Counted from the stretch's first letter, positions 1,866-36,081 are shown. The stretch: 47,371 nucleotides of DNA from Candidatus Woesebacteria bacterium (GCA_020061305.1 JAGUYM010000014.1:1-47371); one strand, 5' to 3'. Program-made: numbers and translations. Notes: generated by a model from the letters alone, not told the origin.

Positions 1866-1883
1866 AGCCATGTTCATTAATAA

Positions 1884-1958
1884 TCCGCGATAGCTCAACG
1901 GCAGAGCAACAAGCTGTTAACTTGAAGGTTGTAGGTTCGAATCCTACTCGCGGAGCCA
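1884..1958 (+). tRNA. tRNA-Asn(GTT), CCA encoded; island integration site
   Basis: Acceptor TCCGCGA/TCGCGGA, D arm GCTC/GAGC, anticodon loop CT-GTT-AA, T arm GTAGG-TTCGAAT-CCTAC. Confidence 0.97.
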
Positions 1959-3530
1959 GATGGGACGCAGAGGCAACAAAGCGTCCTTTTGTCCCGTAAC
2001 ACCGCTCTTTTTCGTAAGTTCGAATTTTTTATTTTCCAAGTCTTCTGTTTTATCCACTTTCGAACCGTTGGTTGCTTCGACTGCCTCAGAGAGGATTTTG
2101 AATGTCTTACTGTAGGTATAACTGAGTTTTCCCTCGTCAACCGTTAATGTGGCGAAGATAAACCTGATTAGGGATCTTTGCTCGTCTATCATGCCTTTAG
2201 ATCTAGCTTGTAAATATAACTCCTTGGCTCTTTGGGATAGTTCATAGAGGTTCACTCCTAAATTGATGTAGCTTGTGCTTGCCTGGGAGTGTTTCTTTAT
2301 AGACTCAGTTATCTCGTCTTTCTCGTCCGAGTATTGTTTAAACTTCCTGCTGTAAAACTCTGGGGTTATCTTTTCATCGAGTTTGTCGTCGTATAACTTG
2401 TCCATTCGCTTCTGAACCGCCTCGTAGCGGGCTTCAAGCTCGTCCACGGTGTTGTTATGATATTCGACCTCGTCTTGATGACTTTCCTTGAGTGCCTTCT
2501 TAAGCCATCCGACTATACGGCTATTTTTGATTTTTAAGGTTTCAAAGCCTTCTAAAAGCTGGGCTTCAACTTCATGTTCTTTTACCCAGGTTGTCTGTGG
2601 GCATTCGTGATAATGGTTACAATGACCGTAAATATGACCCTTAGCTGTCTCAAAAGTAATTGAGTTGTGGCAACTAGCGCATTTGATAAGTCCTCGGAAG
2701 AGGAAATTGTGTTTACGGTATTTAGGTGTAGTTCTGCTTGTAAGCATAGCCTGGACTTTATTAAATTGCTCGATAGTAATCAATGGCTGGTGTTTACCTT
2801 CATACAACTCGTCGTTCCATTTAATCTTACCAATATAAAAAGGTTCACGCAGCAGGGAGTGAATACGGCTATGGGGGAGCTTGTGTCCTAGTTGGGATCG
2901 CATGCCCTCGGCATACATTTTCTTGGATAGTCGTTTGGTTGAGTAGTTGCCTGTGAGATATAGTTCAAACATTTTTCTCACAAACGGCGCCGTATCTTCA
3001 TCGATAACATGGATCTTATGCCCAGTTTCGCCAATGGTTTTATAACCGTTTGGTGGTTTAGTTGGTAGCCACCCCTGGGCAATCTTTTCTTTTTGCCCCT
3101 TCTTTACATTCTCCGAGAGTAGGCGGACATAATATTCGGCTGTGGCTACCTTTACCCGCCACATAAACCATTCGTGGGAACGGGAGGTATTGTGAAGAAT
3201 ACAGCCTTCTTTTGCCAGGTGGACTTGATGGTTCTCATTCTCAGTAATCCATAAGTCGATAGTGGGAACATCAGCGAAGTTTCTGGTTAAGCGGTCTGTG
3301 GTTTCGACGATAATCGTAGGAATGTCGTGCTTACGGACATAAGCAATCATCTCAATAAATATCTTCCTCTGGACTTTGCCTGCTGCGGACTCAGAAACTG
3401 CAAAGACTTTAGCGACTTCTAAGCCTTGTTTGTCGGCATAATCCCTTAAGAACTTCTCCTGTGCTGGTAGAGAGTAACCTGTTTCTTCTTGTTCTTTACT
3501 GCTTACTCGGCAGAATATGGCAGTTTTCAT
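1944..3530 (-). CDS. Large serine recombinase (resolvase + recombinase + zinc ribbon + coiled coil)
   Basis: Catalytic CRVSS motif, TDRLTRN, LFRGLIKCASC zinc ribbon; likely start MKTAIF at 3530; stop codon lies inside the tRNA. Confidence 0.95.
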   Translation of the reverse strand: MKTAIFCRVSSKEQEETGYSLPAQEKFLRDYADKQGLEVAKVFAVSESAAGKVQRKIFIEMIAYVRKHDIPTIIVETTDRLTRNFADVPTIDLWITENENHQVHLAKEGCILHNTSRSHEWFMWRVKVATAEYYVRLLSENVKKGQKEKIAQGWLPTKPPNGYKTIGETGHKIHVIDEDTAPFVRKMFELYLTGNYSTKRLSKKMYAEGMRSQLGHKLPHSRIHSLLREPFYIGKIKWNDELYEGKHQPLITIEQFNKVQAMLTSRTTPKYRKHNFLFRGLIKCASCHNSITFETAKGHIYGHCNHYHECPQTTWVKEHEVEAQLLEGFETLKIKNSRIVGWLKKALKESHQDEVEYHNNTVDELEARYEAVQKRMDKLYDDKLDEKITPEFYSRKFKQYSDEKDEITESIKKHSQASTSYINLGVNLYELSQRAKELYLQARSKGMIDEQRSLIRFIFATLTVDEGKLSYTYSKTFKILSEAVEATNGSKVDKTEDLENKKFELTKKSGVTGQKDALLPLRPIWLRE

Positions 3531-3600
3531 AGTTATTTTGTAACACACAACATAAACAAACTTTTAAGCAATATCAAACAATGGTTGATCTTTGGTTTCA

Positions 3601-4146
3601 TTAGCCTTGTTCTCCTTTAATTTCATCCTCATTTTGCCCACTATTTGTCCCATTTTTACCGTCATCCTGCCGAAGACTTACCGCAACCCCGCCGTCAATT
3701 TTGGAGAAGCGTTGGGGAACATTTGGAGAATTCTTACCGCCGTTATCTGGTATATATTTGGTGTAACCTCGGTCTGGTTTTACCGCCATTAAAAATGAGG
3801 GGTTATTGCGTCTTTGATCGGTAAACCACGAGTATGTTTCCTTGCATTGTTCCCTCGTCCATTTTTCCTTCCTTATAACCCATCGGAACTTACGGCACCA
3901 GCGGTCTAATGTTCTGCGGTAGGGTAGTCCTCCTCTCCTCGTAAAAAGAGGAGTCTGTTTATCAGTGCTTAGTGCTTCGAGTCCGGAGCGTAGTTTAACT
4001 AAACTTCCTGTTTTGCAGTACAACTTAAAAACGCCATATTGGGCTTCAGACTCTTTCTCCAACTTCATAACAACTTGCTCAAATGGTCTCGCTTTATACA
4101 AAATCCCGCCCGCGTTTTTTCTTGTCTGTTTTATTCTGTTTGCCAT
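3601..4146 (-). CDS. Hypothetical HTH protein resembling phage terminase small subunit-like proteins
   Basis: ESEAQYGVFKLY...SL...RTLDRWCRKFRWV pattern recalls the ES..AY.AF..Y...RW...W TerS-like HTH family (recognition from memory); start uncertain (4146 or 4176). Confidence 0.45.
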   Translation of the reverse strand: MANRIKQTRKNAGGILYKARPFEQVVMKLEKESEAQYGVFKLYCKTGSLVKLRSGLEALSTDKQTPLFTRRGGLPYRRTLDRWCRKFRWVIRKEKWTREQCKETYSWFTDQRRNNPSFLMAVKPDRGYTKYIPDNGGKNSPNVPQRFSKIDGGVAVSLRQDDGKNGTNSGQNEDEIKGEQG

Positions 4147-4155
4147 AATCTTCGT

Positions 4156-4240
4156 ATAGTAACTATATAAATACATTTCCTCTTAAAGGGAAAAATTGTT
4201 ACTATAAATGTTCCTTTATAAATCCCTATATAGTTACTAT
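4156..4240. repeat. Perfect 14-bp inverted repeat in an AT-rich intergenic region
   Basis: ATAGTAACTATATA (4156-4169) / TATATAGTTACTAT (4227-4240); partial third copy GTTACTATA at 4198-4206. Confidence 0.8.
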
Positions 4241-4245
4241 GTGTT

Positions 4246-4599
4246 TTATATGTTGATGTCATCTAGATTTACCACCTCAGTTGATACAGGTTCTTTGGCT
4301 CCGTAATTAGGGTCTTTGCTTCTGGCAAGGTGATAAGCGTCGTAGATCTTCTCCACTACCTGATCAAACAGCTTACTATCGTCAATAAAAACGATCTCAT
4401 TCCACTTGCCAATAAATTTATAACTAGGAGCCTGAATCCAAACATAATCTTGAAATTGGGGATGAAGCCGATCTGACTTTAGGATCTTCCAGCCGTGCTC
4501 TATCCAAACATCGAAGAGTATTACTGTTGCCTGAGCCAGTATGGTATCTGATTTTAGTAATTTGACTTTGACGGTAATGTCATTAATCGTGATTGTCAT
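4246..4599 (-). CDS. SpoVG-like nucleic-acid-binding protein
   Basis: LAQATVILFDVWIEHGWKI...WIQAPS resembles the SpoVG pattern; acidic tail LDDINI as in SSB-like proteins. Confidence 0.55.
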   Translation of the reverse strand: MTITINDITVKVKLLKSDTILAQATVILFDVWIEHGWKILKSDRLHPQFQDYVWIQAPSYKFIGKWNEIVFIDDSKLFDQVVEKIYDAYHLARSKDPNYGAKEPVSTEVVNLDDINI

Positions 4600-4624
4600 A
4601 GTTATTTTTATTTAAGATTTTTCG

Positions 4625-4783
4625 TTAACTGCTATTTATCTTTTTTCCTTCAATCCTGAGCAATGTTTCTGTAAAACCTAATAAAGTCATGGCAACCTCC
4701 ATCACTTCCTGGAGAGTTAGTTTGAGACGGTAGTCTTCTTCCAAGATCTGTTTTAGTTCTAGTAATAGGTTTCTGCTTATCAT
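4625..4783 (-). CDS. Small hypothetical protein (52 aa, not in the ORF track)
   Basis: MISRNLLLELKQILEEDYRLKLTLQEVMEVAMTLLGFTETLLRIEGKKINSS; fits the operon gap and has the same ATAACT-ATG start context as its neighbours. Confidence 0.7.
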   Translation of the reverse strand: MISRNLLLELKQILEEDYRLKLTLQEVMEVAMTLLGFTETLLRIEGKKINSS

Positions 4784-4785
4784 AG

Positions 4786-5031
4786 TTATCCGTTGGCATA
4801 GAGCCGCGCCTTCACGACTCGTAATTGGTTGAAATAAACCTGTGGCGATACCTTGATTTCGTCGTGGTAATACTCGGCAACGAGATCCTGAAGTTTTTCT
4901 GTGTTTTGGAAAAGAAACAATGCTTTACGAGGATTTGAGCGGTCAATATCTTCGATGGGATACCAAAGTGAAAGAGTAGTGGCTAGTGATAGATCACTGG
5001 TTGAGTAGTAATCGTTATTAAGTGTATTCAT
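4786..5031 (-). CDS. DUF5659-like small protein
   Basis: YSTSDLSLATTL...IDRSNPRKALFLF pattern typical of this CPR mobile-element family. Confidence 0.6.
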   Translation of the reverse strand: MNTLNNDYYSTSDLSLATTLSLWYPIEDIDRSNPRKALFLFQNTEKLQDLVAEYYHDEIKVSPQVYFNQLRVVKARLYANG

Positions 5032-5045
5032 AGTTATTAGGTAAC

Positions 5046-5105
5046 AAAAAAGGGGCTGTAACTTCTAAATACACGCGAGTGCGTATACTCAGAAGCCACA
5101 GCCCC
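5046..5105 (-). terminator. Long intrinsic terminator/attenuator hairpin in the leader of the core operon
   Basis: On the minus strand a 25-bp stem (GGGGCUGUGGCUUCUGAGUAUACGC-ACUC-GCGUGUAUUUAGAAGUUACAGCCCC) whose non-Watson-Crick positions are all G-U, followed by U6. Confidence 0.8.
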
Positions 5106-5256
5106 GATCGTTTCGTTAGGCTTTACTTCCTAAATCTATAATCATTCAAACAAATTTAGAGTATTAAGTCAAGTTAACTTTTGCTCACATTATCTCCACT
5201 TCTGATTGTTTCTGGTTGTTATTTCTTATTTCGTCTGAGATTGGTAAAATATCCCT

Positions 5257-5387
5257 AACGACCTAAACCCAGTAATGGGCATGGTTAAACAAGTCCTCGT
5301 GAGCAATAAGCTCTCCCTAGAGCGCTCACGAGGCTGTCTCCCGAAAGGGTGGCAGGTGGTGCAAACCATCGCTGGGGGGAGCTTTTT
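5257..5387 (+). ncRNA. Candidate structured ncRNA of unknown class
   Basis: Four hairpins, three GNRA loops (GUAA, GAAA, GCAA), CCUAAA/CAUGG receptor-like internal loop, 13-bp loop-to-3' pairing, upstream TGGTAAAAT -10, downstream U-run. Confidence 0.65.
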
Positions 5388-5395
5388 GGTTTGAT

Positions 5396-5471
5396 TTGAC
5401 AATCTCCCTTCAATGAAGTTAATATGCAACACCTCTAGGTTAAGTTATTAAAAATTGCCTAGAAGGAGGTG
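5396..5471 (+). promoter_or_regulatory. Sigma70-type promoter and hairpin-sequestered strong RBS
   Basis: TTGACA at 5396-5401, candidate -10 about 5419-5425; CACCTCTAGG (5430-5439) pairs with CCTAGAAGGAGGTG (5458-5471). Confidence 0.55.
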
Positions 5472-5475
5472 AAAA

Positions 5476-6348
5476 ATGATAATGAAACACAAAAACAAAT
5501 CTCGAATAATCCCTGCCGTCCTTTTCCTCTTTGTGCTTATTGTTCTGGGGGTTGTGCTTGTTCCTCGGTTATTAAATCAATCTAAGGTAGAGCTATCGTT
5601 GCGAGAGAGTGCAAAAGACAAAGAAGTAGTCGAACTCTTGGCAACCATGAGTGAGAACCCCAATAAAGACTCTCAGGAGTATCAAGAGGCTCAACAGAAA
5701 TTTTGTCTGTTAACTGCGCGCCCAGTTGTCGAAAGGGAAAAAGCTATCGCTAATATCCGTGAGTTCCTAGGTATGTCTGATATACCTGTAGAATTCCTCT
5801 GTAGTCGATTTAATAACAAGCCTGACGAGAGTGGAACTGATTATAATAGTCCTGCCTCTGAACATTACGAAGCTGCCAGGTTTGGTTTCACTATCGATCC
5901 TAAGACTAATTACATTGTTGAGGTTGGTGAAGCAGAGCGTCGTTGGGGGACAAAAGACGATGGCACGCGCTGGTTCGACAATATGCCTGAATACGACAAT
6001 ACTCCTCGCTATACCACCAAGGAGCAAATTCGTAAGGTTGCAGAGGACTTCATGATTAAGCACAAGGACATTTTTGGTGTTGATATCACTAAAATGACTT
6101 ATGAGTTTGAAGGCACAAAACCAGGCAATTTCTTTGTGAAGTGGTATGACTATACCAAACCTTTCACCAAGGAGTTTGAGGAATGTGGAGATGCTGATAA
6201 GACCCGTGAAGGCGCTTATCAGAATGATCAGGGTGTCTGGTGTCTCAAGACTAAGTCGACTCGTTACCCAATGGTTAGTCTCACCATTACCCAAGGCGGA
6301 CAAATAGCTGTCTATGACAACGAAGGCTGGGATATTGAAAAGCTATAA
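5476..6348 (+). CDS. Membrane-anchored/secreted hypothetical protein
   Basis: N-terminal basic + hydrophobic segment, paired Cys, SD AGGAGGTG. Confidence 0.85.
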   Translation: MIMKHKNKSRIIPAVLFLFVLIVLGVVLVPRLLNQSKVELSLRESAKDKEVVELLATMSENPNKDSQEYQEAQQKFCLLTARPVVEREKAIANIREFLGMSDIPVEFLCSRFNNKPDESGTDYNSPASEHYEAARFGFTIDPKTNYIVEVGEAERRWGTKDDGTRWFDNMPEYDNTPRYTTKEQIRKVAEDFMIKHKDIFGVDITKMTYEFEGTKPGNFFVKWYDYTKPFTKEFEECGDADKTREGAYQNDQGVWCLKTKSTRYPMVSLTITQGGQIAVYDNEGWDIEKL

Positions 6349-6538
6349 CGCGGATTCCTCAACACAGCCCCAACAAGGTTTCTGAAGCTAAATAAGCTAA
6401 TCTTATGCCACCCCAGGCACGAAAGCCTCACACAAGCCGCTACGCGCGGTCATGGGTGCGTTCACCAGTCTGTTCTCTTACAGTTTTCTCACATATCTTG
6501 TATAATTAAGTTGAGCTTTACATAAGAGCAACGCTCAC

Positions 6539-6564
6539 CTGCCCTTTTGTAGAGGGCAGTTTTT
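6539..6564 (+). terminator. Terminator-like hairpin between a -10 box and the OLD-family gene
   Basis: CTGCCCT-loop-AGGGCAG + TTTTT, downstream of TATAAT at 6501-6506. Confidence 0.65.
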
Positions 6565-6581
6565 GTAAGCGAAAGATTAAA

Positions 6582-8450
6582 ATGAGAATTAAAAAGGTTC
6601 GGATAAATAACTATCGTTCAGTCCAGAATTCTGGAGACATTTATCTTGAGGAAAAGGTCACTATTCTTGCTGGAAAGAATGAGTCAGGGAAGACGGCCAT
6701 TTTAGAGGCGCTTGAAGATTTTGATAAAGATAAGGAAATTCGGAAAGAGGCTAAACCTATTTTTAACGAGGAAGCCGTATCACAGGTAGCAGTTACCTTT
6801 ACATTATCCGCAGATGAAGTAAATCCTTTATTACAGACAATCGGATTAGAGGGTAAAGAAGAAAAATCTTGTGACCTTACCATTACTAAGACATTTCCAA
6901 AAACTTATGATCTCGATGGTGACACATCGAAATGGCTGAATGGAAAATTAGACGGTCAAGCAAATGAAACCAGAAAGGCTATAAAAGGAAAAGCATCTTC
7001 TATTTCGTCAGCTCTGAAAAAAAATGAGTCAGTTGGCTTGGCTTTTCCAGAACTTGATTTTAGTGATACTGCGTCGCTAGTAAAGCAATTAACGGATTTT
7101 CAACAACAATTAACTCCGCTCTTGCCTAAGATTGAAGATGAGACACAGAGGAATGCTGCCACTCAAGATTTAGCCGAAGCTGTAAAGTTAGCCCAACAAC
7201 TTCAGGCAACTCTTGATCTAGTGAGGAAATTTACAGACGCGCTGGTCAAATCGACCCCCAATTTTATCTACTTTGACTCTTTTGAGAATCTTTTACCGTT
7301 TCAAATTCCTTTAGCTGAAGCCAAGAAAAACAAGGCGGTGCTAAATTTCGCTAAAATTTCTGAGATAGACCTAGATCTGCTTCTTAACGCAGAACGAACC
7401 CGACAGCAAAACATCAACTACTTAAGTCGTAAATCGACAACGATTACGGGAGATTTCTTGGACTTTTGGAATCAAGATAAGGTTGAACTTGAAGCGATGC
7501 TTGACGGAGATAATTTGGTATTTGGCTTTGTTGAAGAGGGTAAAAGTGAAAAGTTCAGCATGCAGCAACGAAGTAAGGGCTTCCAATGGTTTCTCTCTTT
7601 TTACATCCAGCTCAAGCTTCATTATGAGTCTGGCACACAAAATTACCTTCTGGTTGACGAACCTGGGCTTTATTTGCATGCTAAGGCACAAAGAGATGTT
7701 CTGAGTGTTCTAGAGGATCGTTCAGCCAAGATGCCTGTCATTTTCTCCACACATTCTCCTTACTTGCTCGATCCCGACAAGTTGGATCGGGTGCGTTTAG
7801 TTTTTAGAGGGCGAGAGGATGGGACGACTGTTGAATCGAAGATTCACAAAGTGTCAGACAAGGAAACCTTAACCCCTATCTTGACTGCAATAGGACTTGA
7901 AATAACAAGTGGAATTACCAATCCTGACAAACTCAATAATGTGGTGGTTGAGGGACCCTCCGATTGGTATTACCTCACATCTTTTAAAACTATCCTAGAT
8001 GATGGGCAGTTAAACTTCATTTACGGTGGCGGTTCAGGAAATATGCCAAAAGTGGGAACCATCCTACATGGTTGGGGTTGCAAAGTGCTATACCTTTACG
8101 ATAGTGACCAGGGTAAGAAGGATGGAGAGAAAAACCTAACTAAAAGGTGGTTAGTTGAAAAAGCACAAATCAAGGCGGTTTCGGATAGTGATGGCGTGCG
8201 GATCGAAGATTTGTTTACCCAAGAAGACTTTATAAATCATGTTTTAGAAGACAGCTCAAAAACTTATAAATCCAGCAACTCAGAGTATGTCACCAAAGCA
8301 AAAGCCGATAAAGTTTTATTAGCCAAAAAGTTCTTATCCAGAGCTACTGAAATGAAAGATAAACTCTCAAAGGATACCAAAGAAAACTTTAAGAAAGTAT
8401 TCGAAGTTCTAATTAAAGAGTTTTCTAGTGAGGAAAAAGCGAAGGTTTAG
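6582..8450 (+). CDS. OLD-family ATP-dependent endonuclease (ABC-type ATPase + TOPRIM)
   Basis: INNYRS, Walker A GKNESGKT, RSKG signature, LLVDEPGLYLH, STHSP, TOPRIM VVVEGPSD and YDSD. Confidence 0.85.
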   Translation: MRIKKVRINNYRSVQNSGDIYLEEKVTILAGKNESGKTAILEALEDFDKDKEIRKEAKPIFNEEAVSQVAVTFTLSADEVNPLLQTIGLEGKEEKSCDLTITKTFPKTYDLDGDTSKWLNGKLDGQANETRKAIKGKASSISSALKKNESVGLAFPELDFSDTASLVKQLTDFQQQLTPLLPKIEDETQRNAATQDLAEAVKLAQQLQATLDLVRKFTDALVKSTPNFIYFDSFENLLPFQIPLAEAKKNKAVLNFAKISEIDLDLLLNAERTRQQNINYLSRKSTTITGDFLDFWNQDKVELEAMLDGDNLVFGFVEEGKSEKFSMQQRSKGFQWFLSFYIQLKLHYESGTQNYLLVDEPGLYLHAKAQRDVLSVLEDRSAKMPVIFSTHSPYLLDPDKLDRVRLVFRGREDGTTVESKIHKVSDKETLTPILTAIGLEITSGITNPDKLNNVVVEGPSDWYYLTSFKTILDDGQLNFIYGGGSGNMPKVGTILHGWGCKVLYLYDSDQGKKDGEKNLTKRWLVEKAQIKAVSDSDGVRIEDLFTQEDFINHVLEDSSKTYKSSNSEYVTKAKADKVLLAKKFLSRATEMKDKLSKDTKENFKKVFEVLIKEFSSEEKAKV

Positions 8451-8455
8451 TTTAG

Positions 8456-10255
8456 TTACACCTCTTTGGTAACCAGGACTTCTTCTCCTAACATGTCAAT
8501 GATTTTGACTGCCACTTTGGTTGGTTTTTCTGTTATCTCAAGCTCGTATTCTCCTTTGACCAGATCGCTTTGTTTCTCAGGAACATCCGAGAACTCAATC
8601 TTGAAAACTTCACCATCGTAATTTGTATTAACCAGGACAACATCGATCATTGATCTAAAATCTGGTATTTTCTTCTGCAATAATCCTGGTTCAAGTTCTA
8701 AGCGTTTAATGATGGTGGGGGAGATAAAGGATGTAATCTTGATCTTTGCCTTATCCTTGCCTGCTCTGGTAATTTCGACTTCTGCCCTAGAAGGTTCATA
8801 GCTGACAAAGTTTTTGTCCTTGAGATCGAAGACGATAAATTGTCTCATGCGCTTGTTGGTGCGAGCGTCTTTGTGGGGTTGTTTTTTATCCCATTCTTCA
8901 ACCCATGAGTCAACCTTTGTCTCTCTACCGAGGCAGATAACAACGATGTCTCTGTCTTCTTCTGGTCGTTTACCTAGCTCGTCTTTTATTAGCTGGAGAT
9001 CTAGGAGGGTAAGTGGGTGGTTAAAGTCGATAATTTTCACTAACTCGCCACTATCCCTTAAGCCGTCAAAAAAGGTTTCTGTTTTTGTCCTGGTAATACC
9101 ATATTGCTGGATTGCTAACTCTTTTGCCTCGGTTTTAAGAACTCTTAAGTCGTAGTTATTAACCTTATAAACTCCAAAGGACTTACTTATTTGACCATCA
9201 AGGAGTTTCTTCTTCTGTTCTTTGATGATTTTCTGCAATCTATGGCTTGTTTGTTGAATCGCACCTTTATTGATATCTACACCCACCCACCGTCTACCTT
9301 CTTGTTGGGCGACGGCACAAGTTGTCCCCGATCCAATAAAACAATCCAATACTAGACCGTTGTTTGGGGAAGATGCTTTAACGATTCGCTCAAGAAGCGA
9401 TTCTGGTTTTTGAGTAGCATAGTTAGTTTTTTCAATTGCATTTCCTTGAACGGGATTAATATCGCTCCACACATCACCTGGGTTTTTTCCAGATTTTTCT
9501 AGTTCTTCTGCCTCAACTTCATATCGAGCTTCACCCCTTTTAGCTCTAGCAATTGTTTCTGGATTGTATGGAACTCTAACAGGATCGAGATCGAACTGAT
9601 ACTTGTCGCTCTTAGAATAAAAAAGTATGTTCTGGTGTTTTCTTCCCCATCTGTCGTTTCCGCTTGCACCCATGAAGTAATTCCAAACGATGTCGTTTTG
9701 AAAGTTGTCTTCGCCGAATACCTCATCCATTAAGACTCTCATGTAGTGGGTCATGTGATAGTCCAAATGGACATAAATACTACCTGTCTCGGATAGAAGT
9801 TCCTTGAGGAGTATTAACCGCTCATACATAAATTGGAAGTATTCATCTCTCTTCCAAATATCCTCATACATTGTTTGTTGAATTATCGATTCGCTATCTT
9901 CTTCAATTTTTCCTAAGTTTTTAAGTCCTCTCAGTTCAACCTTGCGCATGTAGTCTTTATTACTGGCGAAAGGAGGATCGATATAAATAAGATCGACCTT
10001 GCCTCTGAAACCAAGTTCTAGGAGGGAGGCGAGGACTTCTTTGTTGTCGCCGTGGAAGAGGAGGTTATACCAGTTCTTTTCTAGCTTGCTATATTCAGGC
10101 ACTTTGAGAGCTTCTTTGTCTCCAAAACTCTCGGTAAGTTGCGTGGGATAGCCTGTGACGAATTCTAGGGGTTTCTTATTAACCCAAGTCAGCATTGGTC
10201 TGCCGTTGGGTGTGCCGATCTTAATTTTTTTGTTTGTGTCGTTTGTCATAGTCAT
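8456..10255 (-). CDS. Type III-like R-M DNA methyltransferase (Mod, beta class)
   Basis: IYIDPPF precedes LDCFIGSGTT; TQKPESLLERI; ATG at 10255 overlaps the res stop (ATGA). Confidence 0.9.
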   Translation of the reverse strand: MTMTNDTNKKIKIGTPNGRPMLTWVNKKPLEFVTGYPTQLTESFGDKEALKVPEYSKLEKNWYNLLFHGDNKEVLASLLELGFRGKVDLIYIDPPFASNKDYMRKVELRGLKNLGKIEEDSESIIQQTMYEDIWKRDEYFQFMYERLILLKELLSETGSIYVHLDYHMTHYMRVLMDEVFGEDNFQNDIVWNYFMGASGNDRWGRKHQNILFYSKSDKYQFDLDPVRVPYNPETIARAKRGEARYEVEAEELEKSGKNPGDVWSDINPVQGNAIEKTNYATQKPESLLERIVKASSPNNGLVLDCFIGSGTTCAVAQQEGRRWVGVDINKGAIQQTSHRLQKIIKEQKKKLLDGQISKSFGVYKVNNYDLRVLKTEAKELAIQQYGITRTKTETFFDGLRDSGELVKIIDFNHPLTLLDLQLIKDELGKRPEEDRDIVVICLGRETKVDSWVEEWDKKQPHKDARTNKRMRQFIVFDLKDKNFVSYEPSRAEVEITRAGKDKAKIKITSFISPTIIKRLELEPGLLQKKIPDFRSMIDVVLVNTNYDGEVFKIEFSDVPEKQSDLVKGEYELEITEKPTKVAVKIIDMLGEEVLVTKEV

Positions 10256-12834
10256 TTTTGGGTTTGGTAAATCCAATTAAAGACTGGCGTTACTTTACCA
10301 AACACCGATTCACCTTCCTCTAATAGCAGGAGTTCATATTTAATTTTATCAGGATTTATCGCCTCTAGTTGTTTCATTTCTTTCTCTGCCGCCTCGTTTC
10401 TGTATGGCTTACCTTTGACTTCGACGATGAGTGATTTACCATCCTTCTTTCTAATCAAAAAGTCGGGTGTATAAGAGTGCCAATCTCCTTTATTGTCTTT
10501 ATATTCAAATGCAAAGTCAGTTTTCTCTCTATCGGTCAGCGCTCCTGTAAAGTAAATATCATCGATATTATCTGGGTCTTCGCCGAGTTTGTCCAACATT
10601 TGTTCAAAAAAGGCTCGTTCGTCTTCTGAGTCAAAGTTGTAAGGGTCATAGTGGAAGCCAAACAAAGGCATCTGTCCAGCCTTCTTTTTGTAGGCGTCGG
10701 TGTCCAAGACATACTTTTCAAGGTTGTCCTTATTGACCCTAATATGGGTTACATAGGATGTCTTGCCGTCTTCGACTTCTTCCTCAAATCCTTTGGTTTT
10801 AATCAGCGCCAGAGCTTCCTCAACAGTCTCGGTAGTAACTTTGTATTTGATAACCTGTTTTTCCAGCTGTAAACGGACAAGCTCTAGGTCGACTGCAGAC
10901 ATCTCCCCATCTGGGTAAAGAGGAGTAAGGAGCTTATAAACCTCTAGAGAGTCCAGGCGATAAGTGTGGGCAAGCAAGACTGCTGCCTGGTATAAATCAA
11001 CCTTCACATCTTTGGGTTTTGATTTTTCACTATCAACCTCAACCAGGACGCCTTTCCTTTGGGTCTTGGACATGGTGTAAATAGTCTTCTCAAGCCCTTC
11101 TACGGCGTCAGATTTGGGCTTCTCGACTCTCAAGGCGGTAGATGTATCGTCTTCGGGGATGATCTTTTGGATGAGCTTCTTGATAACGACTGGTTCGATC
11201 TCTAGCTTTTTGAGAGTTATTTTGACGGGATAAGTGTCGGTTTTGGCACGATTCAGGTCATCCAAGCCTTCACCAAATGTTTCCTGGAGCTGGCGATCTA
11301 GCACCGAGACATTGGCTTTGGAGAGATAAATCTTAGCTTTTTTAGTATTGCCGTTTACCTGCCTTAAACACCTGCTGGCTGCCTGAAGCACGAAGTTGTT
11401 GCTTGATGAGAGTTTCCTGGCAAGCGCAGTAGCAAATAAGGATAGGCAATTCCACCCTTCAGTGCCTTTATTGACCAGCAAGAACACTCTGTAGGGTAGG
11501 TGCGGGTCATTAATGCGGTTATCAAATAGATCCTTGATGTCTTCTGGCGATTTATTATGGACTGGCAAGACCACTGAGGGATCAAGTTTCAGGGAGATAA
11601 GAGTCTGTTCGACGATTGGTTTAGCTTTATCCAAGTCATCAACCTGAGGAAAGTATATTGCCAGCTTTGCATATTCGCCGTTATTAACTCTCACATCTTT
11701 GTATTCTTGAAAAAAGTCTTTAACAATATCGATAACAAAGTCTTCCTCTGAAACCTCTTTATAAGCAACAATATTGCCTCGGACTTCCTTGAGAATGCCA
11801 TCTTCAATGCCCTGGGAAAGCCCATACCAGTAAATAACATCACGCAGAAGTTGTCTCTGGAAGTAGGGCGTGCCTGTAGTATTAACAACCGCCAGAAGGT
11901 TAGTCTTTTCGCTGATGTAGTTAATGGTTTGGCGCACTCGTTTGAGATCCTCAGCTAGGGCTTGTCCGTAAGTGTGGTGCGCTTCGTCAGAAAAGACTGC
12001 CAGATGAGGAAGAGAGGTGATAGATTGAAGGCGCAGATTGGCAACAAGTTCTTTGGCTTCTTCTAGCCCTAAGCTCAGTTGTGTGCCGAGGAAGGATTTG
12101 GGAATGCTGTTTTTCTGCAGTCTGATTTTCTCTGTATTAGTAACAATGACATTGAAAGAACTGCCTCGAATAACAGGAATGTCCTTCTCACCGTCCCTGG
12201 TGTAGGTAAACTTCACATTAGTGACAAATGACTTATAGAAGCGCGTTGGTAGGATCTTGTCATAGGGAGTATCAGCAATTTCTTTTAATGCTCCTAGAAT
12301 GGTTTTCCCAGGTGCAAACACCAGGGCGTTTCTGACAAAGATGCCGTCCTTCTCCTGATATTCCAGAGCCATCGCAAACTCAGTGGCAATGATAGAGGCA
12401 ACCAGAATTGTCTTGCCAGCTCCCATTGCTAAGGCAAGAATATAGCTTGGATATGGAAGAGTTAGGGTTTCTCTTAATGCTTCTAGCCTGTATTTCTTGA
12501 CAAACACATCGTTGGTTCTGACCTTATCAATGATGGAATCTAGTCCGCCTCCTGCCAGCAAGAGGTCGGTTAAATCCTCCTCTGATAAAGAAATGCCTAG
12601 TGCCTTTAATAGTTCTTTTCCTTGAAAATATTCCTTGTAAAGATCGAAAATGTTTGGTGTGTTTTTGACTAAGCGCAAATACCAGTAAGTTTCTAACGCC
12701 TCAAATTGCGCTTGTCTTAGAAAATTATTTCTATTGAAGTTTAGGATGGTTGCAATAACAGGGTAGGAGGAGGAATATCCCTGCTGTCTCCAGTTAATAA
12801 CATCTGATTTTAATTGTTGATATAAGTTGTTCAT
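10252..12834 (-). CDS. Type III restriction enzyme Res subunit (SF2 helicase + PD-(D/E)xK nuclease)
   Basis: AMGAGKT, DEAHH, EGW, QAASRCLR; C-terminal TPDF...IVEVKG. Confidence 0.88.
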   Translation of the reverse strand: MNNLYQQLKSDVINWRQQGYSSSYPVIATILNFNRNNFLRQAQFEALETYWYLRLVKNTPNIFDLYKEYFQGKELLKALGISLSEEDLTDLLLAGGGLDSIIDKVRTNDVFVKKYRLEALRETLTLPYPSYILALAMGAGKTILVASIIATEFAMALEYQEKDGIFVRNALVFAPGKTILGALKEIADTPYDKILPTRFYKSFVTNVKFTYTRDGEKDIPVIRGSSFNVIVTNTEKIRLQKNSIPKSFLGTQLSLGLEEAKELVANLRLQSITSLPHLAVFSDEAHHTYGQALAEDLKRVRQTINYISEKTNLLAVVNTTGTPYFQRQLLRDVIYWYGLSQGIEDGILKEVRGNIVAYKEVSEEDFVIDIVKDFFQEYKDVRVNNGEYAKLAIYFPQVDDLDKAKPIVEQTLISLKLDPSVVLPVHNKSPEDIKDLFDNRINDPHLPYRVFLLVNKGTEGWNCLSLFATALARKLSSSNNFVLQAASRCLRQVNGNTKKAKIYLSKANVSVLDRQLQETFGEGLDDLNRAKTDTYPVKITLKKLEIEPVVIKKLIQKIIPEDDTSTALRVEKPKSDAVEGLEKTIYTMSKTQRKGVLVEVDSEKSKPKDVKVDLYQAAVLLAHTYRLDSLEVYKLLTPLYPDGEMSAVDLELVRLQLEKQVIKYKVTTETVEEALALIKTKGFEEEVEDGKTSYVTHIRVNKDNLEKYVLDTDAYKKKAGQMPLFGFHYDPYNFDSEDERAFFEQMLDKLGEDPDNIDDIYFTGALTDREKTDFAFEYKDNKGDWHSYTPDFLIRKKDGKSLIVEVKGKPYRNEAAEKEMKQLEAINPDKIKYELLLLEEGESVFGKVTPVFNWIYQTQK

Positions 12835-12836
12835 AT

Positions 12837-13499
12837 TTATAGATTCTCGGTTAGAAATCGCTGAACTCCCTCTAGCATTGACCTAACATCTTCTGCTTTA
12901 TACTCATCAAATTTACCATGATCGGCACTATCCCTAATTGCTTTCCATGCTTGGATTTGTTTCTGCATTAAACGGCTATAGATTTCCTTATCGGCAAGTT
13001 TAGTGTTGAGCGATCCAATGTCATCTCCTGTTTTGACATCAACAGAATTTTTTTGTGCCAGTTGTCTTAAACCATTCTCCAACACCGCTCCTGTAAGAGA
13101 AGCTGCGGAATCCTTATAGTTATTGCCTAATAAATGCTGAGCCATCTCAATGAAGTCTGTAAAAATCTCTGCGCTTACCAAGTCTCTTACCCTTGTGAGA
13201 AAACCCAGCCCTAAGTCTTCTTTTAGCGCTTTTAATATTCCTATACCGTGGTCAACATCGGAGGGGAAAGCGCTTTTTACTTCTTCTACAAAGTTTTTGT
13301 AATAAGAACTGCTTTCACCACAAACCATTGAAATAAAGTTTTGGGAGTTGTTTTTCCATTCATGAAAGGAGGCACTGTTCACTCTATCTGGTGCTACGAC
13401 TCTATCAGAACTTCTGTTAAAACGGGTTGCAGCTACGCCTTGTGCTTTTTGCAAAAGCTGTTCAGTTCGTTCGATGAGTTTTTGTGTTACTGAATTCAT
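12837..13499 (-). CDS. HEPN-domain (DUF4145-like) protein, putative RNase
   Basis: SAASLTGAVLE helix and RxxxxH motif RDSADH. Confidence 0.75.
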   Translation of the reverse strand: MNSVTQKLIERTEQLLQKAQGVAATRFNRSSDRVVAPDRVNSASFHEWKNNSQNFISMVCGESSSYYKNFVEEVKSAFPSDVDHGIGILKALKEDLGLGFLTRVRDLVSAEIFTDFIEMAQHLLGNNYKDSAASLTGAVLENGLRQLAQKNSVDVKTGDDIGSLNTKLADKEIYSRLMQKQIQAWKAIRDSADHGKFDEYKAEDVRSMLEGVQRFLTENL

Positions 13500-13500
13500 A

Positions 13501-13683
13501 TCATATTTTCATTAATTTTTCTATATCTTCTGGTCGATAACGCCTATCGCCGCGCTCGTTTACTCTTATAGCTTTTAGTTTCCCGCGCTTGTCCCAGCGC
13601 CTCAAGGTCTCCACATGCACATTAAGGATTTCAGAAGCCTGTTTTATTGTTAGTAACTTTGGTAGTGCCTTATCTTTGCTCAT
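13501..13683 (-). CDS. MerR-like/excisionase-family winged HTH
   Basis: LLTIKQASEILNVHVETLRRWD.RGKL...GDRRY. Confidence 0.9.
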   Translation of the reverse strand: MSKDKALPKLLTIKQASEILNVHVETLRRWDKRGKLKAIRVNERGDRRYRPEDIEKLMKI

Positions 13684-13684
13684 A

Positions 13685-15493
13685 TTAATGTTGGCTGTTA
13701 AGCCTGGTTGCTATGGCTTCCTGCTCGTCATACAGAGGTTTATCCTGATCGATCATCCTCTGTTCGGCAGCGCTTAACCACTGATTAGCCTCCATCTTGG
13801 AAACGATTGCAGAGATATTAGCAATTCTTACTCCAATTATCTCATTGATTCTATCAACATCAGTTTTGTTTTTTTCGTAGAAACTTGAGTTGTTTTTGAG
13901 ACTTGACCAGCTTGGCTGAATTTCTCGTAGCCTTGATAGGCTTGTTTTCCAAGACTCAATATCCTCTTTTTTATAGTTGGGGGGAATGTAACCAGCAGCA
14001 TGGACAACAATAAGCTGCGTAGGACATCCATTTAGGCTTCCTTGGACTTCTGCTATACCTATGTCATCAAACTTTTTATCAAACCATACATTTTTGGCAT
14101 CTGTTGAATCTCTTTCGAGATAATCCTCAACTAACTCGTCAGCAGTATAGTAACCCTCTAATGACCATTCCCACACATAGCTATTCCAATACCCAGCTTT
14201 TGACATTGCACTTGAGACGACATCGTATGAAGCCTGTTGTTGAGTAGTGTTATTCTTTAATAGTGATTCTGCTCGTATTTGTGCAGATTTATCAAGTTTA
14301 GGCTCGTATTTTACTGGCGTTGCACCATTTTCTTTGCGTTTTTCGTTAAGTAGCTCGACAAATCTATTTCTGTCGATTGTTGGTTTTACCGTGTCTGACA
14401 AATCATTTGTTGCATCGTGCCAGTTCTTATCAAGTTTGCCCTTCTGTTTTTCCAAAGGTAGAACTAGGCGGATGTCTTTTATTGGAGCAAAGCCAATTTC
14501 TCTTGAATCGGAACTACCTTTTCGGTTGTCGCCCATAGCAAAAATTGCGTCTTGGGGGACGGTAACTGCCTGACATTCCTTTAGAAACTTTTCTCCGAAT
14601 GTCGAGCGGGGTTTGGCAATATAAGGCTCTTTTTGTGGTTCGTTATTAAGGTAAACAATGCCGTCTCTTAGTTCTATTGTGTCTCCAGGAAGCCCGATGA
14701 TTCTTTTTAATAGTCCCGCTGGGTTTGCGCCATCTCTACTTGTGAGTTCTCTTGTCGCGTCATTTTCCCAGGTGATAATGTCACCTCTACCTAGAGTATG
14801 TCCTAGATATCTTTTTCCACCAATAACGATGCCATTCGGATAGGGCAAGAAGCCAGCAGTAGTAATAATCTCCTTGGCAAGATCCTTGTTGCTTTTACCC
14901 TTTGTTCCTTTGTCCCAAGTCGGATACATAGAGCCAGTTCCTACGATATTAATATCCTCTGTAATATAACCGAGCTGGTTCGCGGCCAAAGCGCCAACAG
15001 ATACATAGCCAACAACCCAGATGGGTAAAATAATTGCACAAACCAATACAAGTGCTACTAATTTCGTTAAAACTAGCTTTGGACGCAGGGATTTCAATAA
15101 ACCTCTTAATTTCTCTTGTTTTAGTCTCTTTACGATTTCAAGTGGTTTGATGATAACGACCAATAAATAGAGTGGAAGAGTGGCTAGCGCAAAGAATAGC
15201 TTAATTAGGAATAAAAAGATGTTTTGTTTCTTCTGCGATCTCTTAGATAAAAGTTGTGCGGTAAAACCTATCACACCAATTAAAAAGGCAAGGCAACCGA
15301 GCAATATTAACCCTAGGAGAGAGAAGGCGAAGACATCTGGTGCTTTATCAAAAAGCTCCTTCCTGATGCCCAGAACATAACCCATAATTGCAAAGACGCC
15401 TATAATGCATGCTAGCCAGATGAAAATAGAGACCTTGGTGATCCTGTTGAGAAGTTTCCCTTTGTCTAGTTTTAACGATAATTTCTTCGGCAT
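13685..15493 (-). CDS. Signal peptidase I (S26) fused to a CAP/SCP-like extracellular domain
   Basis: Four TM segments; GSMYPT (Ser), KRIIGLPGD (Lys), GDNRKGSSDSR; CAP-like LNEKR...PVKYEPKLDKSAQIRA...FDDIGIA. Confidence 0.85.
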   Translation of the reverse strand: MPKKLSLKLDKGKLLNRITKVSIFIWLACIIGVFAIMGYVLGIRKELFDKAPDVFAFSLLGLILLGCLAFLIGVIGFTAQLLSKRSQKKQNIFLFLIKLFFALATLPLYLLVVIIKPLEIVKRLKQEKLRGLLKSLRPKLVLTKLVALVLVCAIILPIWVVGYVSVGALAANQLGYITEDINIVGTGSMYPTWDKGTKGKSNKDLAKEIITTAGFLPYPNGIVIGGKRYLGHTLGRGDIITWENDATRELTSRDGANPAGLLKRIIGLPGDTIELRDGIVYLNNEPQKEPYIAKPRSTFGEKFLKECQAVTVPQDAIFAMGDNRKGSSDSREIGFAPIKDIRLVLPLEKQKGKLDKNWHDATNDLSDTVKPTIDRNRFVELLNEKRKENGATPVKYEPKLDKSAQIRAESLLKNNTTQQQASYDVVSSAMSKAGYWNSYVWEWSLEGYYTADELVEDYLERDSTDAKNVWFDKKFDDIGIAEVQGSLNGCPTQLIVVHAAGYIPPNYKKEDIESWKTSLSRLREIQPSWSSLKNNSSFYEKNKTDVDRINEIIGVRIANISAIVSKMEANQWLSAAEQRMIDQDKPLYDEQEAIATRLNSQH

Positions 15494-15543
15494 ACCTCAA
15501 CAAAAGTATACTAAAAACAGCTAATAATTGATATACTGTTTCT

Positions 15544-33740: not shown

Positions 33741-33831
33741 TGGCGGTGAGGGAGAGATTCGAACTCTCGATAACCTTTATGGCTATACGCGCTTTCCAAG
33801 CGCGCGCACTCGACCACTATGCGACCTCACC
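33741..33831 (-). tRNA. tRNA-Ser(GGA)
   Basis: GGTGAGG/CCTCACC acceptor, CGCGC-TT-GGA-AA-GCGCG, long variable arm, CCA. Confidence 0.96.
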
Positions 33832-33890
33832 GAGTCAGAAAACGAAAGTGACGGAGCGCAAGATCTCTTGCTACTTTGTGGCAAGCTTGC

Positions 33891-34379
33891 TTATGCAACT
33901 TCACTGAGTTCATCTCCAATGATCTCATTCTCTTCTACATCAGGATTCTTTTTCTTATTTTTTGACCATTCCTTAACCATCTCATTTGCTTTTTTTAAAA
34001 AATCTTTTTCTTTTTTAATTTTTAGTCTCTTTGTTCCCGATTGATAATCAATCCACGACGAATCACCTAAACCCATAACTTCTGCACCAGCTTTATAAAA
34101 CATCAAATAATAAATTGTTCTTTGATTGATACTTTTTGAATTGACTATCGTAGTTCCCGCAAGTCTTCCCACCTCATCCAAAACTCTCGCATTCATATTT
34201 CCCTGTTCCGTCGTAAATCTAATAACAGATCTTACAGACGACTCTCCCCTCCTAACAGTAGTTTTGGGAATTTCCCATTCGCCATTTATATTTTTAGTAA
34301 GAAGAAATAATTTTTTCCCCTTTCCTTCTTTGAAAATAATTGCGGCCCCAACCAAGACTTCTCCGTTTCCGTTTTTCAT
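33891..34379 (-). CDS. NUDIX-fold protein with degenerate Nudix box
   Basis: WEIPKTTVRRGESSVRSVIRFTTEQG. Confidence 0.65.
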   Translation of the reverse strand: MKNGNGEVLVGAAIIFKEGKGKKLFLLTKNINGEWEIPKTTVRRGESSVRSVIRFTTEQGNMNARVLDEVGRLAGTTIVNSKSINQRTIYYLMFYKAGAEVMGLGDSSWIDYQSGTKRLKIKKEKDFLKKANEMVKEWSKNKKKNPDVEENEIIGDELSEVA

Positions 34380-34410
34380 ATGTAAATGAAGCTATTATAT
34401 CAGAAAAATG

Positions 34411-34495
34411 CGGAGGGTGCAGGATTTGAACCTGCGAAGGGACTGCTCCCTCGAGTTTTCGAAACTCGTGCAATAGACCGCTATGCGAACCCTCC
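34411..34495 (-). tRNA. tRNA-Ser(CGA)
   Basis: GGAGGGT/ACCCTCC acceptor, CGAGT-TT-CGA-AA-ACTCG, long variable arm; CCA not encoded. Confidence 0.95.
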
Positions 34496-34553
34496 AAATA
34501 TACACAATACCCGAAGAGGATGAGCATAAGTCTCTTATGCGAACCCTCCAAAT
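34482..34553. repeat. 18-bp direct repeat of the tRNA-Ser(CGA) 5' end
   Basis: TATGCGAACCCTCCAAAT at 34482-34499 and 34536-34553. Confidence 0.85.
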
Positions 34554-34554
34554 G

Positions 34555-34626
34555 TGTCCTCGATAGGAATTGAACCTATATCATAACTTCCGCAAAGTCA
34601 TGTTCTATCCGTTGAACTACGAGGAC
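34555..34626 (-). tRNA. tRNA-Arg(GCG)
   Basis: GTCCTCG/CGAGGAC acceptor, TGACT-TT-GCG-GA-AGTTA, ATAGG-TTCAATT-CCTAT. Confidence 0.93.
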
Positions 34627-34643
34627 ATATTTGTATTTTACTA

Positions 34644-35168: not shown

Positions 35169-35209
35169 AGATAAAATTATACCCCAAATTTGATATAATT
35201 GCCTAACTT

Positions 35210-35296
35210 GGTGGGGTCGCATAGTTGGTCCATTGCGGAGGTTTGCTAAATCTCTGAGCTGAAAGGCTCGCGCAGGTTCAAATCCTGTCCCCACCG
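35210..35296 (+). tRNA. tRNA-Ser(GCT)
   Basis: GGTGGGG/CCCCACC acceptor, GAGGT-TT-GCT-AA-ATCTC, long variable arm; TGATATAAT upstream. Confidence 0.95.
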
Positions 35297-35340
35297 CACA
35301 AGATTAGAATTTAGAGTTTAGAATTTTGGATTTGCATTAT

Positions 35341-35425
35341 GGAAGGTGGGCAGGACGGTAATGCGCGGGTCTTGAAAACCCGTGGGAGCAATCCCTAACA
35401 GGTTCGACCCCTGTACCTTCCGCCA
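35341..35425 (+). tRNA. tRNA-Ser(TGA)
   Basis: GGAAGGT/ACCTTCC acceptor, CGGGT-CT-TGA-AA-ACCCG, long variable arm, CCA. Confidence 0.94.
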
Positions 35426-35464
35426 CTCTTGGTATGGCCATTGTTACAATTAACGCACCACATT

Positions 35465-36076: not shown

Positions 36077-36081
36077 TTTTG

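Follow-up and report, generated by a model that had tools for sequence, protein, structure and literature searches.

The window analysed here, a 47,371-nucleotide stretch of DNA from a Candidatus Woesebacteria bacterium (GCA_020061305.1 JAGUYM010000014.1:1-47371), carries an integrative island at a tRNA-Asn gene. The left end of the island is occupied by a large serine recombinase, the reading frame of which overlaps the 3' end of the tRNA, and further to the right lies the gene for a small structured RNA, followed by a co-oriented gene for a membrane-anchored protein. The main features of the island are as follows.

1958-15520, integrative island of about 13.6 kb, its right border being approximate (15.5-15.9 kb)
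1884-1958, + strand, tRNA-Asn, at which the island is integrated and which forms its left border
1944-3548, - strand, large serine recombinase (integrase) with Resolvase, Recombinase and Zn_ribbon_recom domains, matching the phrog_95 integrase (E 9.8e-81)
between the recombinase and the RNA gene, - strand, three small genes, one of them for a DUF5659 protein
5258-5387, + strand, gene for the structured RNA (LOOT)
5476-6348, + strand, downstream co-oriented gene for a 290-aa protein with an N-terminal hydrophobic anchor
6582-8450, island gene for an OLD/AriA-like ATPase
8456-10276, island gene for a type III methylase
10252-12834, island gene for a Res-like helicase
12837-13499, island gene for a HEPN protein

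The island was also found in a genome of another family (G158), which shares 1876-6452 at 89% and 8456-15519 at 87%, while a genome of the same genus (G001) matches only 16-1801 and the tRNA. Since the island is common to the former but not to the latter, it is an element of about 14 kb that moves between genomes by horizontal transfer, and the preliminary description of the RNA as cargo of a mobile element thus holds. Of the 130 columns that cover the RNA and its tail, 129 match the G158 copy, against 85-92% identity in the flanking segments, a contrast that points to selection on this copy. A direct repeat was sought at the island ends and not found; serine recombinases need none. For the 290-aa protein, no match was obtained in Pfam, PADLOC or PHROGs, and an atlas search returned only hypothetical proteins.

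Family membership and core fold of the RNA

When the whole window was scanned with Rfam, eight matches reached the curated cut-offs, and one of them was to the LOOT RNA family (RF03000), located at 5260-5370 on the + strand with 78.1 bits (E 3.8e-13). The LOOT gathering cut-off is 46.4 bits, and the match spans the full model (positions 1-121 of 121). When 5100-5520 was scanned permissively (E <= 5), LOOT was the only family returned, with no match to any ribozyme or riboswitch family in this interval even at that threshold. The full-length match above the cut-off places the RNA in a catalogued class; 5258-5387 (+) is the gene for a LOOT RNA, a new member of a known family and not a new class. 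The preliminary description, made from the sequence alone, had stated that the RNA matched no recognised class and had proposed an Rfam search in which a strong match would mean lack of novelty. That search has now been run, and with a score so far over the cut-off the first statement is wrong and the novelty is refuted. LOOT is present in a single copy, at the locus as well as in the 658,693-bp genome, and a blastn search of 5240-5400 against a phage collection gave no match.

The name LOOT stands for 'lots of tetraloops', and the family has been described as marine or unclassified. It has been in Rfam since release 14, with the type 'Gene; sRNA', without a function, without a host biology, and with a structure that is purely nested. 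According to the Rfam 14 paper, LOOT was taken from the Weinberg/Breaker alignment collection, and a figure legend in the same paper uses it as an example of a metagenome-based family (PMC7779021). The CaCoFold paper gives LOOT about 43 base pairs in six helices (PMC7657543), which corresponds to the nested structure of the copy described here, and a table in the Rfam 15 paper lists it with two added covarying pairs (PMC11701678). In the main text of the 2017 discovery paper (Weinberg et al. 2017, NAR 45:10811; PMC5737381), the word LOOT is absent except as an author surname in the references. The searchable literature yielded no account of a LOOT pseudoknot, of a U-tract or terminator, of a recombinase link or of membrane-protein neighbours, some of which the supplement of the 2017 paper may describe.

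The window copy has the same four hairpins, GAAA loop and receptor as the Rfam family, arranged as follows (all on the + strand and, except where noted, read directly).

5260-5370, LOOT core of four hairpins, Pa, Pb, Pc and Pd (Rfam RF03000 model; fold z = -6.7)
5260-5286, Pa: GACC (5260-5263), UAAA, CCCA (5268-5271), GUAA loop (5272-5275), UGGG (5276-5279), CAU, GGUU (5283-5286)
5262-5267 and 5280-5284, Pa internal loop CCUAAA/CAUGG, resembling the 11-nt receptor (also from homologue variants)
5295-5333, Pb: 10-bp stem (5295-5304/5324-5333) with a 19-nt apical region (also from covariation)
5310-5323, Pb apical hairpin, GCUCU (5310-5314) and AGAGC (5319-5323)
5334-5355, Pc: 5334-5338, U, 5340-5342, GAAA loop (5343-5346), 5347-5349, U, 5351-5355
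5355-5370, Pd: 5356-5360, GCAA loop (5361-5364), 5365-5369, to which the Rfam alignment adds the pair G5355-C5370

It was indeed found that the minimum free energy structure of 5258-5371 consists of exactly these four hairpins, at -51.1 kcal/mol, whereas shuffles of the same segment averaged -30.45 +/- 3.08 kcal/mol and none of 200 folded as well. To evaluate conservation of the fold, 61 LOOT loci with 34 nt of 3' flank were collected from the genome of the window and its relatives. A plain MAFFT alignment of these loci misaligned the Pb stems, such that only 25-44 of the 61 rows paired in most Pb columns; a covariance model (R1) was therefore built from 22 of the 61 sequences, and all loci were realigned. 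In the model-based alignment, the Pa helices were 94-95% paired with compensatory changes, Pc 95.7% and Pd 95.6%; all ten Pb pairs had changed on both sides, with 87.4% of cells paired, and the apical hairpin of Pb was likewise conserved (83.5% paired). Overall, 92.0% of the cells of the nested structure were paired, against 62.5% in shuffles (63 rows). The helices, GNRA loops and receptor-like loop all lie where the preliminary description had placed them. The covariation check that it had suggested, run here by pair counts on alignments, was strongly positive in two sets of homologues, so that its picture of a compact, tertiary-motif-rich structured RNA is real.

The most strictly conserved nucleotides of the family fall almost wholly within the receptor and the GAAA loop. 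The columns that are invariant (C6, T7, A8, A9, A24, G26, G76 and A88 in first-row numbering) belong to the receptor, its AUGG strand, one G and the GAAA loop, and when near-invariant columns are included, conservation still does not extend beyond these elements and two linker A's; the GAAA positions of Pc are themselves invariant or at least 90% conserved. Using a crude regular expression, by which 3 of the 61 loci could not be parsed, the receptor was read as CCUAA-A...C-AUGG in 31 loci and CCUAA-C...U-AUGG in at least 11, and one locus (L051) had the canonical CCUAAG...UAUGG. These variants bear out the earlier reading of the loop as resembling the 11-nt GAAA receptor. In comparison with the GAAA/11-nt receptor pair of the Tetrahymena P4-P6 domain and of tectoRNA, LOOT thus has CCUAA-N...N-AUGG and a strictly conserved GAAA, and the closing G-U is replaced by A/C or C/U in the two groups of loci just named. 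Docking of the Pc GAAA loop into the Pa receptor is predicted, and would give the RNA a compact fold.

The loop-to-tail helix and its U-tract

The Rfam model of LOOT stops at 5370, two bases before a G-rich tail, and contains no pseudoknot. The apical region of Pb houses, in addition to the small hairpin, a segment that is complementary to this tail, and the segments in question, together with the transcription signals around them, are listed below (all + strand).

5242-5250, extended -10 element TGgTAAAAT, read directly, with a likely start at about 5257-5258, the 5' edge of LOOT
5308-5320, alpha, upstream arm of the pseudoknot/terminator helix, AAGCUCUCCCUAG, read directly and from covariation
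5372-5384, gamma, downstream arm of the pseudoknot/terminator helix, CUGGGGGGAGCUU, outside the Rfam model, from replicated pair counts
5383-5387, U-tract and presumed termination point, read directly, its first two U's pairing with A5308-A5309
5396-5425, promoter-like TTGACA-18-TAATAT before the next gene (10 of 12 matches)
5403-5413, delta, a weak and partly conserved segment, UCUCCCUUCAA, complementary to the G-rich downstream arm, with which it could pair once polymerase has read through

Direct reading shows 13 uninterrupted pairs between 5308-5320 and 5372-5384, of which two are G-U, and RNAduplex gave -28.5 kcal/mol for the extended duplex. Runs of at least 13 consecutive pairs occurred in only 5 of 1000 mononucleotide shuffles of 5257-5387 (131 nt). 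On the sequence-only MAFFT alignment of the 61 loci, RNAalifold picked the loop-to-tail helix unaided. In the same alignment, 91.4% of its 606 cells were paired, compared with 73.4% in shuffles (none of 500 reached the observed value), and 115 cells had changed on both sides, compared with 31.5; sliding the partner by 1-3 columns reduced the pairing to 35-70%. The helix was not in model R1, and loci with a GGUC-type Pb loop fell into insert columns of that alignment and were counted as gaps for the pseudoknot. The R1 alignment supports both Pb and the loop-to-tail helix, and examples of its exchanged pairs are UG15 CG12 GC11 AU5 UA2 at one position and GC28 AU14 at another.

An alignment-free test gave the same picture. 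Pairing of each Pb region with its own tail averaged -26.8 kcal/mol, as against -18.2 kcal/mol with the tails of other loci, and the own tail ranked 1-3 in 33 of 50 loci. Two of the 50 failed; in one of these (L044) the tail lies further downstream, and in the other (L007) no tail was found. A second set was collected separately by scanning named genomes with a pattern that did not touch the tail, and 51 of its 80 loci were confirmed as LOOT. In this set, the own tail scored -27.2 kcal/mol against -17.3 kcal/mol for others and ranked first in 22 of 49 loci, and the pair counts were comparable. For this duplex test, five rows were dropped as weak or truncated (L094, L099, L112, L123 and the second L143 match), and L008, at 30 bits and below the cut-off, was left out of all sets. 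Compensatory conservation of the 5308-5320 and 5372-5384 pairing was thus seen in about 110 homologues, drawn from two sets that were gathered separately, although counts of this kind overstate independence because the homologues are related. A pseudoknot-free minimum free energy fold that includes the tail pairs 5268-5273 with it; this was rejected as the family structure, as it has no support in the alignment.

These results document that a fifth, long-range covarying helix, absent from the Rfam model, turns the LOOT fold into a pseudoknot, as the preliminary description had noted in its 13-pair interaction of loop and tail. The arrangement is that of an H-type pseudoknot, in which a hairpin loop pairs with a strand outside it, with covariation in both stems in one alignment and in the replicate. 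We regard both LOOT membership and the long-range helix as highly probable. The competing local hairpin GCUCU/AGAGC, also part of the earlier account, was borne out in the same way: the apical hairpin is conserved, it and the loop-to-tail helix are mutually exclusive, and at one upstream-arm position covariation was seen with either partner. The two differ in size, the apical hairpin having 4-5 bp and the longer helix 13-14 bp. It is to be noted that a 13-bp helix with linkers of only 3 nt on each side may cause Pb and the full helix to fray, to be strained or to alternate; Pb and the full loop-to-tail helix could therefore be alternative states.

The downstream arm runs directly into the U-tract, and at least five U's were found in the eight nucleotides following it in 55 of the 61 loci. 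On the 5' side of the upstream arm lies an A-run that pairs with the first of these U's (AU51 at one position, AU34 GU19 at another, in the R1 alignment). A G+C-rich helix followed immediately by a U-tract, here reaching to 5387, is characteristic of an intrinsic terminator, and the conserved helix with its U-tract looks like a pseudoknotted one. A standard terminator scan reported no + strand site at 5257-5390, since the helix is not a local hairpin, its upstream arm lying about 50 nt away inside the Pb loop. With 51 nt and further helices lying between its two arms, the structure departs from a local hairpin with a short loop. LOOT shares with ordinary intrinsic terminators the G+C-rich helix of 11-14 bp, the immediate U-tract and the 5' A-run, and differs from them in that its 'loop' contains half of Pb together with Pc and Pd, the whole being a pseudoknot. 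Judged from these features, the loop-to-tail helix is quite probably the intrinsic terminator of LOOT; both the helix and the U-tract lie beyond the end of the Rfam model at 5370.

At the other end of the RNA, a -10-like hexamer (at least 5 of 6 matches) was found within 30 nt upstream in 43 of 61 LOOT loci, compared with 26 of 244 control windows, and its position just upstream would put LOOT at the very 5' end of the transcript. The extended -10, the downstream U-run and a separate promoter for the next gene, all proposed at the outset, were thus recovered, and the same TTGACA-18-TAATAT block occurs in five other loci (L011, L012, L018, L020 and L024). Among the listed sequencing runs that contain the stretch, none is recorded as RNA; four runs that were examined consisted of contigs, and one run of uncertain kind carries LOOT-like sequence of relatives. 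The delta segment paired better with its own partner than with those of other loci (-13.2 versus -9.95 kcal/mol; n=60, L007 being left out), and the effect was clear in about half of the loci. A role for delta as a relay to the ribosome-binding site was dropped, as delta covaries with the variable part of the tail and not with the ribosome-binding site.

Neighbouring genes and distribution of LOOT

The genes on the two sides of LOOT were compared across loci, with ORF starts and hydrophobic segments called by simple scripts. The nearest downstream ORF was co-oriented with LOOT in 52 of 60 loci, and in the remaining eight, inspected by eye, a short or overlapped co-oriented ORF was present as well; the nearest upstream ORF was divergent in 42 of 61. 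A hydrophobic segment was found in the first 90 amino acids of 44 of the 52 downstream products, compared with 6 of 61 upstream neighbours. In size, the downstream proteins span about 45 to about 490 aa; they fall into numerous unrelated families, among them small zinc-ribbon membrane proteins, membrane-anchored SNase nucleases, methylases and unknowns, and so point to no common regulated pathway. With starts chosen automatically and crudely, at least 23 of 52 loci have the start codon within 60 nt of the U-run. In two loci (L003 and L015), it follows the U-run by only 1-2 nt, a spacing that places the GGGAG or GGAGG of the tail at the position of a ribosome-binding site.

LOOT was detected in 8 of the 61 relatives sampled, in 18 of the 151 genomes sampled from the class and in 30 of the 151 sampled from the small-genome phylum, i.e., about a fifth of the latter sample, at up to three copies per genome; in 14 control genomes there were none. 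The titles of the confirmed loci name many Patescibacteria lineages. Labels other than Patescibacteria were seen on about 10 of the 51 confirmed named loci, and five of those genomes, when checked, were 0.9-2.0 Mb in size.

In the phylum sample, at least 21 of 42 LOOT copies lay within 6 kb of a PF07508 match, where 1.25 were expected, and at least 25 of 42 lay within 15 kb of a large-serine-recombinase match, both among the matches listed. The list held 150 of the 171 PF07508 matches, and the distances are upper bounds on account of the other 21; a 29.8-bit LOOT match (G270:C2) was left out of this count. Among the 21 copies close to a listed match, 13 had the recombinase on their upstream side and divergent from LOOT, with strands read by hand. 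In the separately collected named set, a recombinase-like gene was present in 20 of 51 LOOT loci and in none of the 29 pattern matches that were not LOOT. LOOT therefore travels with large serine recombinase elements.

Proposed role and alternative readings

The best overall reading of the locus is that the LOOT gene opens a transcription unit at its 5' end and serves either as a leader/attenuator or as a terminated small RNA, and to this we would give somewhat better than an even chance. The more specific reading, in which LOOT is a 5' leader or attenuator setting the expression of membrane-protein cargo genes on recombinase-borne elements, has in our estimate slightly less than an even chance, judging from gene layout. 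Transcription would start at about 5257 from the extended -10 promoter. The GAAA loop of Pc would then dock into the Pa receptor, and the folded core would present the Pb loop. The emerging G-rich tail would displace the apical hairpin of Pb and form the 13-bp helix ending in the U-tract, such that the upstream arm of the terminator is presented by the folded RNA and the whole becomes a pseudoknot. The product of termination would be an RNA of about 125-130 nt, which may accumulate as a small RNA, and any polymerase escaping termination would go on to transcribe the co-oriented gene for the membrane-anchored protein.

Parts of such an arrangement have parallels elsewhere. The c-di-GMP-I (GEMM) riboswitch is likewise a tetraloop-receptor leader, found ahead of various surface and membrane genes and in some cases on phages. 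LOOT differs from it in having no match to that family, no conserved junction pocket and another order of helices. The P4 CI RNA and P1 c4 are leader RNAs of a phage or satellite that terminate their own operons. Like these, LOOT heads a rightward operon that diverges from the integrase side and has three mutually complementary segments; in LOOT, the complementary segments are within one fold, the RNA is not known to be processed, and the likeness drawn here is one of layout.

The leader/attenuator reading has to be weighed mainly against a stand-alone, trans-acting small RNA, for which the pseudoknot helix and U-tract would be only a terminator or part of the mature fold, the neighbouring gene being independent and co-oriented because this avoids head-on transcription. 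LOOT does have its own promoter-like element and U-tract, it is far more conserved than its flanks, and its compact fold with tetraloop and receptor would be in keeping with a stable RNA that has a protein or a second RNA as its partner. The separate TTGACA-18-TAATAT before the next gene, conserved in five related loci, points in the same direction, and the copy in the window may be a separate transcription unit on its account. To this extent the term 'stand-alone' in the preliminary description fits the present copy; for the family as a whole it is doubtful, since the next gene is often too close to have a promoter of its own. The co-orientation of 52 of 60 downstream ORFs also speaks against a purely trans-acting RNA, and at least 23 of 52 starts lie within 60 nt of the U-run, several of them without room for a promoter. 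The bias in N-terminal hydrophobic segments (44 of 52 downstream, 6 of 61 upstream) is hard to explain without a functional link, and no single-stranded region complementary to a target is conserved. Orientation, spacing and membrane-protein bias thus favour the leader/attenuator, and we consider the trans-acting alternative unlikely, at roughly one chance in a few. A related possibility is that LOOT is the RNA partner of an element-encoded protein, i.e., an antitoxin-like or scaffold RNA, with the membrane proteins as effectors. Type III toxin-antitoxin loci have a promoter, a structured RNA, a leaky terminator and an effector gene in succession, and the order of promoter, RNA, terminator and gene at LOOT loci is similar, as are the membrane-protein products downstream and the mobile, defence-island context (OLD-like ATPase, type III restriction-modification, HEPN). 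LOOT, on the other hand, contains no tandem repeats and occurs once per locus and once in the genome; the downstream proteins, at about 45-490 aa and including nucleases and methylases, are not one toxin family, and the 290-aa protein of the window has no PADLOC match. Such a role would be quite improbable.

The preliminary description had also offered a ribozyme or switch, and both find little support. As a riboswitch, or a sensor of a ligand or ion, LOOT would use binding by its core to choose between the apical hairpin of Pb and the terminator helix. The 5'-leader position is suitable, the two helices are mutually exclusive with one upstream-arm position covarying with both partners, and tetraloop-receptor docking is dependent on Mg2+. 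However, the confinement of invariant columns to the receptor, GAAA loop, two linker A's and one G means that there is no conserved ligand pocket of unpaired nucleotides, and the downstream genes are of unrelated families. An apical hairpin of 4-5 bp would in addition be a poor match for a terminator helix of 13-14 bp, and with no riboswitch family match at E <= 5 this reading is very improbable. A self-cleaving ribozyme, processing the 5' end of the element transcript, is the least probable of all. It would be in keeping with a compact pseudoknotted fold near integrase genes, where several small ribozyme classes are typically found; the near absence of conserved unpaired nucleotides outside the receptor and tetraloop and the lack of any ribozyme family match at E <= 5 speak against it.

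Returning to the leader/attenuator, its fullest form may be stated as follows. LOOT would be a mobile leader on large-serine-recombinase elements of small-genome (Patescibacteria-type) bacteria, and not a free-standing small RNA; its tetraloop-receptor fold would present one arm of a pseudoknotted intrinsic terminator, and would in this way control whether membrane-anchored cargo proteins of diverse kinds are transcribed and, in some loci, translated. This combined proposal is a tentative one, and we hold it possible but short of probable. If true, LOOT would be an attenuator of a novel structural type, its terminator being completed by an RNA domain with a tertiary fold.

For LOOT, an orphan family, the fifth covarying helix with its probable role as terminator, the recombinase link and the membrane-protein neighbours provide three testable handles. 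If the leader/attenuator reading holds, LOOT would represent an unusual terminator assembled on a tertiary-folded domain, and would give a first view of the control of mobile-element genes in organisms for which growth in isolation is not yet possible. Even if it proves wrong, the LOOT model and homology searches based on it should benefit from the corrected structure.

Sequence features within and around the LOOT RNA

The internal loop in Pa, the first hairpin of the LOOT RNA (Rfam RF03000), resembles the 11-nt tetraloop receptor, and across all loci of the first set its closing pair was observed to covary in a non-Watson-Crick manner. In a crude regular-expression parse that left 3 of the 61 loci unparsed, 31 loci carried A and C at this pair, at least 11 carried C and U, and a single locus (L051) carried G and U.

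Upstream of the RNA, 30 of the 61 loci (L001-L062) have an ACAA[TA] box no more than 20 nt ahead of the LOOT start, versus 29 of 427 control windows; its position peaks at -10 relative to that start, and TATAAT often lies about 12 nt farther upstream. The box was not found upstream of the window's own LOOT copy. In the loci that have it, the box may serve as another -10 element or belong to a conserved 5' leader.

On the 3' side, the segment directly past the U-run (5403-5413 in the window) is able to pair with the 5' portion of the G-rich tail, which is its variable portion. About half of the LOOT loci have such a segment in the corresponding position; in L013 and L059, for example, it could form 10 pairs with the tail. 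Pairing of the post-U-run segment with the tail of its own locus gave -13.2 kcal/mol, versus -9.95 kcal/mol for cross pairs between loci (n = 60).

Genes upstream of LOOT and other RNA genes of the window

Upstream of LOOT, the minus strand carries a hairpin of 20 pairs with a U-run after it (5055-5102), a short distance ahead of where the DUF5659 gene (4786-5031, minus strand) starts. Since the hairpin and U-run precede the gene start, this gene may have its own terminator-like leader. Five homologous ORFs of 62-76 amino acids, from L009, L019, L024, L029 and L053, form a cluster upstream of LOOT, and three of them are on the same strand as the RNA, ending just 19-31 nt before it. All 133 upstream ORFs were also scanned in one batch: HTH_17/MerR (excisionase-type) matched 5 of them and DUF5659 matched 6, these counts covering the batch as a whole.

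Elsewhere in the window, a cluster of five tRNA genes adjoins the tmRNA gene (together 33744-36469):

36079-36469, minus strand: tmRNA gene (156.8 bits)

LOOT copies, host titles and island cargo

The covariance model R1 gave weak LOOT-like second matches at L058:565-683 (minus strand, 19.5 bits) and L143:2375-2471 (minus strand, 20.5 bits), about 0.9-1.8 kb away from a full LOOT copy; these may be decayed duplicates. Confirmed copies also occur in assemblies titled Bdellovibrionales, Gammaproteobacteria, Planctomycetia or Nanoarchaeia (L067, L086, L088, L103, L126, L076, L122, L133, L111, L129), of which five checked genomes measured 0.9-2.0 Mb. LOOT in assemblies titled outside Patescibacteria may reflect mislabelling or a wider range, both being compatible with these results.

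The window's genome (G000) has a second large-serine-recombinase domain match, at C15:21859-22119 (minus strand), near which the LOOT search of this genome found no copy. When the island in G000 was compared with that in G158, a genome of another family, the sole replaced segment was 6452-8456 of the window, containing an OLD/AriA-like ATPase gene, while the flanks on both sides were 87-89% identical. As read from this alignment, the replacement is a cargo swap within the element.
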